From assembly GCA_043809645.1 (NCBI GenBank), contig JBDROX010000036.1, forward strand, positions 1,713 through 65,712: a stretch of 64,000 nt of DNA, given 5' to 3'. Numbering within the stretch: position 1 is the stretch's first letter; each line of letters begins with the position of its first letter. Shown one piece after another: positions 36,446 to 42,609 of this stretch. This stretch comes from Candidatus Magasanikiibacteriota bacterium (GTDB taxonomy: Bacteria; Patescibacteriota; Patescibacteriia; Magasanikbacterales; UBA922). The notes below the pieces were generated by a model. It saw only the letters and a list, made by a program, of their open reading frames with translations. It had not been told where the DNA came from and searched no databases. The position numbers and the translations under genes are program-made.

Positions 36446-37354
36446 ATGGCATCAATTTTTAGAATTATAAAATTTGCTTTTCAGGACATTGTCAGAAATG
36501 CAAGTCTTTCTCTGATGACAATATTAATACTTGTATTGATGTTACTCTCTATTAACACTCTTTTTATTGTAGACGTGCTTACAAAACAAGCAACAGCCTC
36601 TATCAAAGAGCAAATTGATGTAAGTATCTACTTTGACCACGAGGCATCGGACGAGAATATTACTGAAATACGAGATTATGTTTCTGCTTTCCCAGAGGTT
36701 GTAGAAATGAATTTATATACGAAAGATCAGGTGTTGGAAAAATTTAAGGAAGAGCATGCACAGAGTCCAGAAATTTTAAAATCACTCGAAGAGCTGAAGG
36801 AAAATCCACTTGGGGCCACTATGGTAGTAAAAATGAAAAATCCAGGGGACTACAAGAAGATTATCGATGCACTGAGCGTACCAGAATATGAATATATAAT
36901 AGAAGCAAAAACATTTGGAGATACAGAACGTGCTATAAATAAAATTGACACCATTACTACACAAGTAGAAAGATTTAGTCTTGCACTGAGTGCATTCTTT
37001 GCAATTATTGCATTCCTGATCATCTTCAACACTATACGAGTATCTATATTCACACAGAGAATTGAAATAAGTATCAAGAAGCTTGTTGGTGCGACGAACT
37101 GGTTCATTAGAGGTCCTTATATCCTTGTTTCACTTATTTTCAGTATTATTAGTACTGCAATTGCCTACACACTAGTTGTCTTTGGTGCACAATTCCTGGA
37201 TCCATATATTGCTATCGTATTTCAGACTGACCCATTCTTGACAAATTACTTCAAAAGCAATATAATCATGCTGGCTGGTCTACAACTCATTTCAGTTTTT
37301 CTCCTAACACTTGTGTCCAGTATGCTCGCAATGAGGAGACATCTAAGAGTCTAG
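36446..37354 (+). CDS. ftsX: cell division permease FtsX
   Basis: 302 aa, N-terminal TM plus periplasmic domain plus three C-terminal TM helices, directly after ftsE. Confidence 0.85.
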   Translation: MASIFRIIKFAFQDIVRNASLSLMTILILVLMLLSINTLFIVDVLTKQATASIKEQIDVSIYFDHEASDENITEIRDYVSAFPEVVEMNLYTKDQVLEKFKEEHAQSPEILKSLEELKENPLGATMVVKMKNPGDYKKIIDALSVPEYEYIIEAKTFGDTERAINKIDTITTQVERFSLALSAFFAIIAFLIIFNTIRVSIFTQRIEISIKKLVGATNWFIRGPYILVSLIFSIISTAIAYTLVVFGAQFLDPYIAIVFQTDPFLTNYFKSNIIMLAGLQLISVFLLTLVSSMLAMRRHLRV

Positions 37355-37409
37355 AAACGTTTGAAAAGGCAAACTTCTGAGTTTTCTCAGTTGTTTTTTT
37401 GAAAAATAT

Positions 37410-37480
37410 TCCGGGGTCGTCTAATGGTAGGACTCCAGGTTTTGGTCCTGGCTATCGGGGTTCGAATCCCTGCCCCGGAG
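37410..37480 (+). tRNA. tRNA-Gln(TTG)
   Basis: Hand-folded: acceptor TCCGGGG/CCCCGGA, anticodon stem CCAGG/CCTGG with loop TTTTGGT, T loop TTCGAAT. Confidence 0.8.
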
Positions 37481-37566
37481 CTACGTAAAGTTCGCTACGT
37501 TCACAATGTGGCCAGCTCATATAAAAATGATCTTGCTGCGTGGTGACCGAAGGTCACTTTATGCGA

Positions 37567-37965
37567 TCGGCGGTAGCTCAGTGGTAGAGCAGTTGGCTGT
37601 AAAATTGTTTGCAGCCTTCAATGGAAACATTGGAGTGAAAACAAGGTGAATTGCTGGGAGCCCTCTCTCCTGAATTATCAGGTCTGGGTAATCAGCAGCC
37701 AATCCTTTGCGGAGACGCATTCAGGCAACAGGTGTAGAAATATACAGGTCTGCATGCGGCAAGATTTGCGAAGGCAGGTTCAGAGACTATCCTTAATTGG
37801 AGTAGTTCAAAGGTGGTGCACCTTTGAACGAAGCGCCTTGCACCCAAACGCTCTCGACAAGATCGAGTTATTACGTGGGTGATGATATATAGTCCATCCT
37901 TTGGTGAAAGCCAGAGACAAGATGTAACCAATTGGTCGCCGGTTCGAATCCGGCCCGCCGAGCCA
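37567..37965 (+). tRNA. tRNA-Asn(GTT) gene interrupted by a group I intron in the anticodon loop (exons 37567-37600 and 37925-37965, encoded CCA)
   Basis: Exons alone fold as a canonical tRNA: acceptor TCGGCGG/CCGCCGA, D arm GCTC-AGTGGTA-GAGC, anticodon stem GTTGG/CCAAT, spliced loop CTGT|TAA, T arm GCCGG-TTCGAAT-CCGGC, G73, CCA. Confidence 0.8.
37601..37924 (+). ncRNA. group I self-splicing intron (324 nt, ORF-less)
   Basis: P1: exon GGCTGT pairs with internal guide gcagcc (37611-37616), U.G at the splice site; P element aattgctggga (37649-37659); Q taatcagcagcc (37689-37700); R gttcagagactatcc (37779-37792); S gatgatatatagtcc (37881-37895); P7 GACTAT/ATAGTC; terminal G at 37924. Confidence 0.85.
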
Positions 37966-37974
37966 TGAATTTTC

Positions 37975-38020
37975 AAAAAAACATCGCTAACTTTAGATAA
38001 GTTTAGCGGTGTTTTTTTAT
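37975..38020 (+). terminator. rho-independent terminator after tRNA-Asn
   Basis: catcgctaactt-tagat-aagtttagcggtg followed by ttttttt. Confidence 0.45.
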
Positions 38021-38120: not shown

Positions 38121-38915
38121 TTGTTTCTTGATTTTTTTAATCCAGGAATGGATTTAATAAGATATTATCATCAGCAACAAGATGCTAAAGTGAAATATGG
38201 TAGTCTTTTCCATGGTGGATCGTTTTTGGAAAATGATTTATACTCATTTGACTGGTTAAATAGATTTGAAAACGCGTGGTTTGGTTTGTATGATGTTATA
38301 TATACATCATCAAAATATACACTCAAATCATGTCCTAAGTCTATACGAAGCAAGTTTAAAGTGTTTCCATGGGGTATGGACGGTATAAAATTTTATGCAA
38401 ATTCTTCTACAAAAGAATGGGGTGTTGTTTTCCCGCATAGATTAAATTCTGATAAAGGTGTGGAGGATTTATTGATAATTATAAAATCAATTCCATATGC
38501 ATCTTTTGCTATTACCGTACCACAAGATTTGAATACACTTACGGAAAATAAATTTTATAAAAAAATTGCTAAGCACAAAAATGTTACTTTTGTCATTAAT
38601 GAGTCAAGAGATCAGCATTTAAAAACACTTTCTAAATCTCGTATTATTTTGAGCTGTGCAAAACAAGAATTGTTTGGTTATTCAGTAATGAAAGGTGTAT
38701 TATCTGGATGCATACCTGTTCTACCAAACCAACTTTGTTATCCAGAATTTTTTGATAAAAAATTTATGTACAAAGATGTTGACGAGGCAATTAATATGAT
38801 AAAAGAATTCATTAAGCAAGATGTGGACGGTGTGGGTGTTAAAAAACTTGATGAGGTAAGAAGGTGTGTATCTTCAATGACTTTTGGAAAGATATTATCC
38901 GATTTTTTTAAGTAA
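38121..38915 (+). CDS. glycosyltransferase-like protein (GT-B C-terminal domain, GT1/GT4-like), N-terminal domain apparently truncated; very AT-rich
   Basis: ELFGYSVMKGVLSGCIPVLPN matches the E-x-FG...EA...G-PV nucleotide-sugar-binding block; only about 100 aa precede it; TTG start in the ORF track, alternative ATG at 38148. Confidence 0.4.
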   Translation: MFLDFFNPGMDLIRYYHQQQDAKVKYGSLFHGGSFLENDLYSFDWLNRFENAWFGLYDVIYTSSKYTLKSCPKSIRSKFKVFPWGMDGIKFYANSSTKEWGVVFPHRLNSDKGVEDLLIIIKSIPYASFAITVPQDLNTLTENKFYKKIAKHKNVTFVINESRDQHLKTLSKSRIILSCAKQELFGYSVMKGVLSGCIPVLPNQLCYPEFFDKKFMYKDVDEAINMIKEFIKQDVDGVGVKKLDEVRRCVSSMTFGKILSDFFK

Positions 38916-38942: not shown

Positions 38943-39380
38943 CTAAAAGCATACACTTGACCTCCAAACGCAGACTCCGTCTACAGGATCAATTTTTTGA
39001 ATATGAGGCATAGAATATATATCTATGTCTTTTTTTGCTACAAAGATCAATCCCTTTCGTTTTGTGTAAATTGAATCATGAAAGTGAACTTCAACTTGTT
39101 CGTAGAGTGACCCCTCAAATTCTGTCAGTTTATCTTGTATGTTGTTGAACTCCTTTTCTGATGTATCAAATGTGTTGAACGTTGCCGAAATGAGATGTCC
39201 AGATTCGCAGAGTACTGCGAGTGGGTAAGAATATACACCATTTGGTTCTGTATAGTCTGTAACCCTGTACAGCCAACCTCTGATGAATCCACATATCACA
39301 TGGATAGGCAATGTTCCGCATATTTCACGAAGCAACTCGCTGTTTATCAGTGTTCCATAAAATATGAACGAATTCTGCAT
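38943..39380 (-). CDS. gamma-glutamyl cyclotransferase / AIG2-like family protein
   Basis: N-terminal FIFYGTLINSELL (the GGCT family YGTL motif), 145 aa. Confidence 0.55.
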   Translation of the reverse strand: MQNSFIFYGTLINSELLREICGTLPIHVICGFIRGWLYRVTDYTEPNGVYSYPLAVLCESGHLISATFNTFDTSEKEFNNIQDKLTEFEGSLYEQVEVHFHDSIYTKRKGLIFVAKKDIDIYSMPHIQKIDPVDGVCVWRSSVCF

Positions 39381-41190: not shown

Positions 41191-42609
41191 ATGACACAAG
41201 ACAAAAACATAGGTAATTTTGATTACCTTGGGATTGGAGAAAAACTTCTGACAATTCTAAAAAACAAGGGTTTTGAAACCCCAACCCCGATTCAACATCA
41301 GGTTATTCCTGCTGCCCTAGAAGGAAAAGATGTGGTAGGCATTGCACAAACTGGGACTGGAAAGACCCTGGCTTTCGGCATTCCGATCCTTGAGAAAATA
41401 CTAAAAGGGAGCGGGCAGGCACTCATTATGGTGCCAACACGTGAGCTTGCACTCCAAGTAGAGGCATCTCTGAAGCAAATCGGAAGTACACTCGGACTCC
41501 GAACAGCTGTCATAATCGGGGGCGTAGCACAGGGAAGACAGGTGCAAAATATTCGAAATAATCCACATGTCATCATTGCAACACCTGGACGTCTAGACGA
41601 CCTCATGAAGCAGGGTCAGTATAAACTAAACAAAGTTGAGATTATTACACTCGACGAGGCAGACAGAATGCTCGATGTTGGATTCCTTCCACAAATCAAG
41701 CATATTTTACAAACTGCACCGCAGAAGAGACAAACCATGCTCTTCTCTGCTACTATGCCGAAGTCTATCTCTTCTCTTGCGAGCCAATTCATGAAGATTC
41801 CTCTCAGAATTGAAATTGCACCCCAAGGAACTTCTGCAGAGCACGTTGAACAGGAAGTATTTGTCATTAGAAAAAATGACAAGATGCGCCTCCTTGACTC
41901 AGTGCTCGAAGAGTATAAGAGTGACAAGACACTCATCTTCTCTCGAACCAAGCACGGTGCAAAGCGTATTGCACGCGAGATCAGAAACATGGGCCACACA
42001 TGTACAGAAATTCATGGAAATCGATCACAGCCACAGAGAGAGAAGGCACTCGAGGGCTTCTCTGGTAGGCGATTCCGTATCATGGTTGCGACAGACATTG
42101 CAGCACGTGGTATTGATGTCAGAGATATTGGTCTGGTACTGAATTTTGACCTTCCAGACAATTCAGAGGACTATGTTCACAGAATTGGAAGGACCGGACG
42201 AGCAGGGCGATCTGGAAAAGCAATCTCATTCATCGACCCATCACAGAAGGCTGATGTGAGTAGAATAGAGAGACTCATCAGAAAATCTCTAAAAGTCCTT
42301 TCTCTTCCACAGCTACCACCACCAAGACCCAAGGCTCCAAAAGAGAATAAACCATTCTCTGGATGGCAACCAAGGCGACAGGGTGGAGGATATGGTGGGC
42401 CAAGAAAACGTCCTGCTGGACACAGCAAGCAAAAACCGTCGTCTAACTACAACAGACGAAATTCTTCGTCTAACGAAACCAAGTCAGAATTTACTCCAAA
42501 AAGAGAAGATAAAAACTGGGATGGCGAAAAACAGAGGGGTAGAGCTCCTTCGAAGAATAAACAAAAACCACAGAGAAGTCGAAATAGCGGGAAGAGGAGA
42601 ACAAGATAA
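41191..42609 (+). CDS. DEAD-box ATP-dependent RNA helicase with Arg/Gly/Lys-rich C-terminal tail
   Basis: Q motif, AQTGTGKT, PTRELA, DEAD in LDEADRML, SAT, HRIGRTGRAGRSG. Confidence 0.9.
   Translation: MTQDKNIGNFDYLGIGEKLLTILKNKGFETPTPIQHQVIPAALEGKDVVGIAQTGTGKTLAFGIPILEKILKGSGQALIMVPTRELALQVEASLKQIGSTLGLRTAVIIGGVAQGRQVQNIRNNPHVIIATPGRLDDLMKQGQYKLNKVEIITLDEADRMLDVGFLPQIKHILQTAPQKRQTMLFSATMPKSISSLASQFMKIPLRIEIAPQGTSAEHVEQEVFVIRKNDKMRLLDSVLEEYKSDKTLIFSRTKHGAKRIAREIRNMGHTCTEIHGNRSQPQREKALEGFSGRRFRIMVATDIAARGIDVRDIGLVLNFDLPDNSEDYVHRIGRTGRAGRSGKAISFIDPSQKADVSRIERLIRKSLKVLSLPQLPPPRPKAPKENKPFSGWQPRRQGGGYGGPRKRPAGHSKQKPSSNYNRRNSSSNETKSEFTPKREDKNWDGEKQRGRAPSKNKQKPQRSRNSGKRRTR

Follow-up and report, generated by a model that had tools for sequence, protein, structure and literature searches.

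The classical group I introns of tRNA genes lie in the anticodon loops of tRNA-Leu(UAA), between positions 34 and 35 (cyanobacteria, plastids), of tRNA-fMet (33/34), and of tRNA-Ile(CAU) and tRNA-Arg(CCU) (36/37; Azoarcus, Agrobacterium). The inventory of intron-interrupted bacterial tRNAs was later expanded from four classes to 21 cases (Williams, bioRxiv 2020, 10.1101/2020.01.27.920355), and the tRNA-Asn intron at 35/36 corresponds to Asn.4Ug of that work, as cited in PMC13011429. Among 95 complete Patescibacteria genomes, 15 have such a tRNA-Asn intron (Nakagawa et al., mSystems 2026, preprint 2025, PMC13011429); of the 22 tRNA genes with introns detected there, 15 are of this kind, which makes it the commonest tRNA intron. 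According to the same study, nearly all of these introns belong to subgroup IA, four of them carry HNH genes, and standard tools miss these genes or mislabel them, often as tRNA-Thr(UGU) interrupted at 33/34. The tRNA-Asn intron of GCA_016700035.1, a member of the Saccharimonadia, self-splices precisely at 35/36 in vitro with GTP only, and changing its last nucleotide, omega-G, to C blocks exon ligation (PMC13011429). Here we analyse a 64-kb stretch of DNA from Candidatus Magasanikbacteria (contig JBDROX010000036.1; the whole stretch is called the window below), in which a tRNA-Asn(GUU) gene at 37567-37965 of the plus strand is interrupted at anticodon position 35/36 by a 324-nt group I intron.

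We put the probability at about 0.9 that the locus holds a functional tRNA-Asn(GUU) gene of Candidatus Magasanikbacteria (Patescibacteria), split between U35 and U36 by a group I ribozyme of subgroup IA. The class is already published and a close relative of the intron splices in vitro; the window provides an additional example, from Magasanikbacteria and with extra peripheral helices. The original prediction for this locus had called an intron in tRNA-Asn unusual. That judgement is out of date, since the intron was described as Asn.4Ug in 2020 and is the commonest tRNA intron of Patescibacteria in PMC13011429. The name 'Magasanik' was not found in the searched part of the supplementary text of that paper, whose survey was confined to complete genomes.

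Exons and insertion site

Exon 1 (37567-37600, plus strand, as are all features below unless stated) is 34 nt long and supplies the 5' strand of the acceptor stem, the D arm, the 5' strand of the anticodon stem and the nucleotides C32, U33, G34 and U35. It ends in ...GUUGGCUGU, and its final 6 nt, GGCUGU (37595-37600), form the exon half of P1. The intron occupies 37601-37924, beginning with AAAAUUG and ending with AAGAUG. Exon 2 (37925-37965) begins with UAACCAAU and adds U36, A37 and A38, the 3' strand of the anticodon stem, the variable loop, the T arm, the 3' strand of the acceptor stem, the discriminator G and an encoded CCA, terminating in GCCA. Joined together, the exons fold as a cloverleaf of 75 nt in which all pairs of the acceptor stem (7/7, including U1-A72) and of the anticodon stem (5/5) form and the anticodon loop is CUGUUAA.

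With introns allowed, ARAGORN reports tRNA-Asn(gtt) i(35,324) at exactly 37567-37965, and no other tRNA-Asn gene was found in the 64-kb window by this search. The insertion point is CUGU-intron-UAA, which puts the intron precisely at the 35/36 boundary of the anticodon. A canonical tRNA-Asn made from the exons, with CUGU and UAA meeting in the spliced loop, and a 324-nt insertion between positions 35 and 36 had both been claimed beforehand; the ARAGORN call, its full cloverleaf and the coordinates agree with both claims. The U1-A72 pair is found in 114 of 122 homologs and discriminator G73 in 119 of 123 (counts among the matches listed), and the tRNA of the window has both.

A family of covarying introns

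Membership of the intron in the group I class was established at two levels. In a local scan with the Rfam model Intron_gpI (RF00028) the intron scores 82.1 bits, the gathering threshold being 50 (E-value 2e-21), over model positions 1-253 of 253 and window positions 37591-37916. The second level is a profile of the tRNA-Asn introns themselves, for which homologs had to be collected with sequence patterns. Our first scan of a genome collection looked for G followed by an exon-2 pattern, which was too loose and matched ordinary tRNAs: only 3 of 120 among the matches listed were real introns (L032, L098 and L024), and L032, an unclassified metagenome-assembled genome (MAG), has an Asn intron at 35/36. 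The window intron as a lone nhmmer query returned zero matches among the loci of this first scan, its primary sequence being too diverged for detection without a profile. A tighter pattern, consisting of the P7 3' strand, a short gap, G and Asn exon 2, proved specific when checked on the first-scan loci and matches 42 IMG/VR contigs. In a metagenome collection, a pattern with window-type spacing between the P7 strands gave at least 120 matches, so the sub-lineage of the window is abundant in environmental data.

Complete tRNA-Asn exons (CUGU, then an intron ending in G, then UAA) are present at 123 loci, 115 of them unique, among the matches listed. Within the same set, intron lengths are bimodal (183-402 nt and 537-644 nt), and the long introns contain an HNH open reading frame (ORF) of ~100-117 aa (Pfam PF01844) in 34 of the 115 unique loci, or ~30%. 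A guanosine stands at the omega position in 123 of 123 resolved homologs among the matches listed, a count to be read with the fact that the search pattern demanded G.

From the short homologs we built an alignment of 37 non-redundant sequences, from which the window was excluded, and drew the consensus structure on it. Consensus partners can pair in 94.8% of the alignment cells, compared with 76.1% after shuffling and 32-45% when partners are slid along the sequence. Changes on both sides of the pair occur at 35 of 55 pairs and the covariation score is 0.493 versus 0.146; none of 500 shuffles reaches the observed value of any measure. Most of this signal comes from P2, P3, P4, P6a, P8 and P9, and P6 has compensatory changes as well.

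We judged whether the window copy belongs to this family with the profile hidden Markov model of the alignment (nhmmer) and by threading on the consensus structure. Across the 64-kb window the profile has a single match, full-length, at 37593-37932 (130.3 bits, E-value 1.2e-39). Scores of three published members lie between 148 and 182 bits, with 152.6 bits for the experimentally validated GCA_016700035.1 intron and 182 bits for GCA_016699245.1 from Paceibacteria. Threaded on the alignment, the window intron satisfies 54 of 55 consensus pairs, 57 of 57 invariant columns and 26 of 30 near-invariant columns.

Secondary structure of the intron

Minimum free energy (MFE) folding, which uses energy only and no comparative input, gives -122.3 kcal/mol (z-score -6.28, 0 of 100 shuffles as stable) and recovers the P1-P9 layout of a group I intron. 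Secondary-structure modelling and a search with the Rfam Intron_gpI covariance model were the checks proposed in the original prediction, and each came out in its favour. The elements that it had named also fall where they should: the exon sequence GGCUGU (37595-37600) finds its partner in the guide GCAGCC (37611-37616), with U37600 opposite G37611 at the 5' splice site, the P and Q elements are the strands of P4 (37652-37657 and 37692-37697), the R and S elements are those of P7 (37783 and 37785-37789 with 37890-37895), and the intron ends with G37924 directly before the 3' exon.

P1 (37595-37616) is a 9-bp helix formed by 37595-37603 and 37608-37616 and closed by the loop AUUG; it is present in the MFE fold and has 6/6 consensus pairs, including the U37600.G37611 wobble. 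Its inner pairs U.G, G-C, U-A and C-G do not change across the 37 homologs. It is followed by the P2 hairpin (37617-37634; 7 bp, GAAA tetraloop at 37624-37627), for which the window has 6/6 consensus pairs and all six family pairs covary on both sides. P3 is a long-range helix of 7 bp in the MFE fold between CAAGGUG (37642-37648) and CGCCUUG (37834-37840), with 7/7 pairs in the window, double changes at 5 of 7 family pairs and pairing in 98.8% of cells.

The P4-P5-P5a domain spans 37652-37697, with P4 as given above, P5 at 37660-37663/37686-37689 and P5a at 37669-37673/37678-37682 (MFE; 6/6 and 2/2 consensus pairs in the window). P4 cells are paired throughout the family (100%), and three of the P4 pairs switch between G-C and C-G, C-G and A-U, and U-A and G-C, so that UGCUGG/UCAGCA alternates with UCAGGG/UCCUGA. 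P6 (37698-37700/37777-37779) carries a long extension, the whole covering 37698-37779, with helices of 10, 5, 5 and 5 bp and a GAAA cap at 37737-37740. P6 together with P6a has 7/7 consensus pairs in the window; the distal helices of the extension are predicted by the energy fold alone.

The guanosine-binding helix P7 is a pseudoknot and thus outside the reach of the MFE fold; threading gives 6/6 pairs in the window. Its 5' strand (37783-37789) consists of G37783, the bulged A37784 and GACUA (37785-37789), is preceded by the conserved J6/7 GGUUCA, and pairs with UAGUCC at 37890-37895. The latter follows J8/7 (GAUGAUAU), the two together occupying 37882-37895, and the family block GATGATATAGTCCA is near-invariant here. 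Between P7 and the 3' strand of P3, the MFE fold places P7.1 (37790-37792/37799-37801) and the 11-bp P7.2 (37805-37815/37819-37829), the pair of hairpins covering 37790-37829. The family pairs of P7.1 covary, with 79.5% of cells paired, and hairpins of other sequence occupy the P7.1/P7.2 site in GCA_016699245.1 and in the IMG/VR locus L161. P8 (37841-37881) is formed by 37841-37846 and 37876-37881 with an inner hairpin at 37853-37857/37863-37867 (MFE; 5/5 in the window), and double changes are seen at 4 of 5 family pairs. The P9 hairpin (37899-37916; 7 bp, GAAA tetraloop at 37906-37909) also appears in the MFE fold with 6/6 pairs in the window, and 6/6 family pairs covary. Omega-G, identified from the sequence, is at 37924, the final intron nucleotide directly before U36. 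P10 pairing between AAC/AAU of exon 2 and UUG/GUU at 37604-37609 of the intron is possible. The P7.1/P7.2 architecture, a hallmark of subgroup IA, taken with the classing of 25 of 28 introns at 35/36 as IA in PMC13011429, suggests assignment of the window intron to it.

Coding potential

No ORF in the intron has a family match that would indicate a homing endonuclease; an antisense ORF of 94 aa has no Pfam match, and the P1 loop, which is the site of the HNH gene in relatives, is 4 nt long. The absence of a homing-endonuclease ORF had been claimed from the start and stands. Since the P1 loop has only 4 nt, the window copy is not autonomously mobile, and it is probably an immobile, vertically inherited intron. 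A sense stretch of 93 codons is free of stops (37601-37879) and was rejected as a coding signal: 1.7% of shuffles reach this length, homologs vary widely and there is no family match. Among the homologous introns, some have no stop from end to end, and others do. Where relatives do have an HNH ORF, it lies in the P1 loop, starting 15-47 nt past the 5' splice site and ending at or over the guide (e.g. L169, L176, L276).

Comparison with described introns

The experimentally validated reference for the window intron is that of GCA_016700035.1, which splices in vitro (sequences from Table S3 of PMC13011429). The exons of the two are identical at 69 of 75 positions, and the anticodon arm, the GCAGCC guide, the U35.G wobble and omega-G are the same. 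They also come from one phylum and have in common the tRNA, the insertion site and the core blocks GAAAACARGGTGAATTGC, GGTAATCMGCAGCCAA, AGGTTCAGAGACTA and GATGAKATAGTCCA; neither carries an endonuclease ORF. They differ in length (324 nt in the window versus 234 nt) and, between P7 and the 3' strand of P3, where the window has the two hairpins P7.1 and P7.2 and the Saccharimonadia intron a single long-range hairpin. The P6 extension, ~60 nt longer, and the longer P8 distinguish the window from all three published introns compared.

Closer in sub-type are the Paceibacteria intron of GCA_016699245.1 (PMC13011429, Table S3) and IMG/VR locus L161, which share with the window a UGCUGG-type P4, P7.1 (UCC...GGA), GUA, a P7.2 hairpin and GAAGCGCCUUGCA. 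These two are shorter (259 and 239 nt), with a short P6 and a short P8, and they have an extra hairpin in the P1 loop that is absent in the window, with exon stem GACUGU or GGCUGU. In the HNH-bearing tRNA-Asn introns the ribozyme family and the 35/36 site are those of the window, and the HNH gene, which the window lacks, is placed between the 5' splice site and the guide. Common to the window and the classical tRNA introns are an essential tRNA interrupted in its anticodon loop by a ribozyme, the splice-site U.G pair, omega-G and, as usual in the classical introns, the lack of an ORF. The classical introns, however, are of subgroup IC3 and occupy other loop positions, whereas the window intron has P7.1/P7.2 and belongs to an IA-classed group.

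Annotation by standard tools

Neither ARAGORN with default settings nor a whole-window Rfam scan at the gathering threshold detected the feature; it was reported only by the local, permissive Rfam scan and by ARAGORN with introns allowed. Both misses result from filters and default behaviour of the tools and are hence no evidence against it. A miss of this type means that such intron-split tRNA genes stay unannotated, and an automated pipeline would list tRNA-Asn as absent in this Magasanikbacteria MAG and understate the completeness of the genome. The practical value of our observation is therefore in annotation, and the missed-gene problem itself has already been described in PMC13011429.

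Is the gene functional?

Our analysis establishes the tRNA exons, membership of the intron in its family, a structure that is conserved and covaries, and every position of the catalytic core; the intron is real and very probably functional. Judging from the validated homolog and the established chemistry of group I introns, the window copy should splice, and it is plausible that decoding of Asn codons in this organism depends on self-splicing. Several points weigh against this view. The window copy has the ~60-nt-longer P6 extension, P7.1/P7.2 and the longer P8, unlike the validated Saccharimonadia intron, and the one consensus pair that it does not form, in P7.1, is U-U. Because the search patterns fixed them, P7, omega-G and the exon-2 start are invariant among the homologs and provide no covariation evidence. 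Also, our view is limited to 64 kb of a MAG, and a second, intron-less tRNA-Asn could lie elsewhere; the Magasanikbacteria-like relative L001 (GCA_900089805.1) has just such an intron-less gene at L001:17173-17245, an unrelated locus ~15 kb away from its tRNA-Gln gene.

The relative with its intact gene at another locus, together with the small part of the genome in view, would fit a decaying or redundant copy, whose ribozyme splices poorly while an intron-less tRNA-Asn elsewhere does the decoding. An HNH gene, present in 34 of the 115 unique homologs listed, that was lost from the window intron or never present there could be read in the same way, except that the endonuclease is absent in most of the published (PMC13011429) and metagenomic homologs too. 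Decay is hard to reconcile with 57 of 57 invariant core positions and 54 of 55 consensus pairs, with a perfect exon cloverleaf including the encoded CCA, and with the strong terminator after the gene, and we consider it quite unlikely. A dependence of tRNA-Asn maturation on a host protein, such as a chaperone or a maturase-like factor, deserves mention as many group I introns require protein cofactors in vivo. The extra peripheral helices may fold slowly, and 3 kb further downstream there is a gene for a DEAD-box helicase (41191-42609), though such genes are common. On the other side, the tested homologs self-splice in vitro with GTP only (PMC13011429), and the window intron has three predicted GAAA tetraloops (L2, the L6 extension and L9) of the kind that would stabilise autonomous folding, so that a strict need for a protein seems very unlikely.

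The remaining alternative concerns the identity of the tRNA. Shifting the boundary by 2 nt turns the gene into tRNA-Thr(UGU) with an intron at 33/34; ARAGORN and tFind call several published homologs in this way, the ambiguity is documented (PMC13011429), and in our own set ARAGORN gave Thr(tgt) i(33) for L098. With this boundary the window intron would end in A (...GACAAGA/UGUAACC) and the P1 partner of U33 would be A, with no G wobble. The body of the tRNA speaks for Asn as well: the U1-A72 pair and G73 fit tRNA-Asn and nearly all homologs, and the exons are identical to the sequenced spliced tRNA-Asn of the validated homolog at 69 of 75 positions as against 47 of 74 for the tRNA-Thr(CGU) of the window. 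For the window itself ARAGORN gives Asn 35/36. Lacking omega-G and the U.G pair, and having an Asn-like tRNA body, the 33/34 boundary was rejected, and we leave it next to no chance.

Proposed splicing pathway and possible regulation

If the gene is a functional tRNA-Asn split by a self-splicing ribozyme, transcription of the precursor, which may include the upstream tRNA-Gln, would end at the hairpin at 37975-38017. The intron would fold into P1-P9, and pairing of the guide GCAGCC with GGCUGU would set the U35.G wobble at the 5' splice site. P7 would bind a free guanosine, which would then attack after U35. Next, this guanosine would be replaced in P7 by G37924, and the 3'-OH released on U35 would attack after G37924, joining U35 to U36 and restoring the anticodon loop CUGUUAA.

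A regulatory role for such introns was raised as speculation by the authors of PMC13011429, and we find it unlikely, if worth stating, that the intron is retained as an RNA-level checkpoint rather than merely being hard to lose. Were this true, and were this the only tRNA-Asn gene of a reduced genome poor in regulators, the supply of tRNA-Asn would be gated by ribozyme folding, guanosine nucleotide and Mg2+, and the peripheral additions specific to the lineage, the long P6 extension with its GAAA loop and P7.2, would tune the response. The window adds no question to those already raised in the published work, on the reasons for the persistence of such introns in reduced genomes and on any regulatory effect.

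Host and genomic context

The host had been predicted to be a reduced-genome bacterium, in line with which the TypA protein of the window is 100% identical to one from a Candidatus Magasanikbacteria MAG, and the next 100+ matches are from Magasanikbacteria or Patescibacteria. The neighbours of the gene are ordinary chromosomal ones, with FtsE and FtsX upstream and RlmN, the DEAD-box helicase and TypA downstream. A tRNA-Gln(UUG) gene (37410-37481; ARAGORN, Rfam) lies 85 nt upstream of tRNA-Asn, and co-transcription of the two is possible. A terminator-like hairpin with a U run (37975-38017) starts 10 nt past the tRNA 3' end (-19.6 kcal/mol, z-score -6.8, 0 of 200 shuffles). It was not called by a simple consensus terminator scan because of a bulge in its stem.

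In the relative L001, whose TypA is 83% identical, the order FtsE-FtsX-tRNA-Gln is kept (tRNA-Gln at L001:1849-1920) and no tRNA-Asn follows; close relatives thus differ in where the tRNA-Asn gene lies. In this comparison of synteny with one relative, the genes flanking the L001 tRNA-Asn had no tblastn match within the window.

Several observations were made around the gene. A perfect sigma-70 consensus (TTGACA, 17-nt spacer, TATAAT; 12/12) is located at 37238-37266 in the 3'-terminal part of ftsX, with a terminator-like hairpin (37377-37390) and the tRNA-Gln/tRNA-Asn pair downstream of it, and a weak promoter-like site (9/12) occurs between the two tRNAs at 37500-37528. Just downstream of tRNA-Asn, GC content falls to 0.34 in the segment 38001-40000. 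The ORFs there (38121-38915 on the plus and 38943-39380 on the minus strand) have no significant family match, the first having a sub-threshold match to glycosyltransferases, and the segment may be variable or acquired.

Related introns in other genomes

Of the 42 viral-classed IMG/VR contigs found with the tighter pattern (L125-L166), 14 hold tRNA-Asn genes interrupted at 35/36 by introns of 183-243 nt (e.g. L161:1217-1530, L129:7829-8086, L154:911-1228). These could be tRNA-Asn genes borne by phages or Patescibacteria contigs that were misclassified. The first scan also yielded a tRNA-Asn split at 35/36 by a group I intron of 268 nt (Rfam 76.2 bits) in a MAG of the cyanobacterium Hormoscilla sp. 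(L098:1281-1623), to which ARAGORN attaches the Thr label through the 2-nt-shift error known from the literature. Another group I intron, scoring 36.6 bits with the Rfam model and thus below gathering, is found at L024:7134-7429 in Sphingomonas cremea (NZ_JAKFGM010000001.1). Its gene is called Thr(tgt) by ARAGORN, and the exon sequences (...CUUU/...G/UAAUC) look like those of a tRNA-Lys(UUU) split at 35/36 in an alphaproteobacterium.

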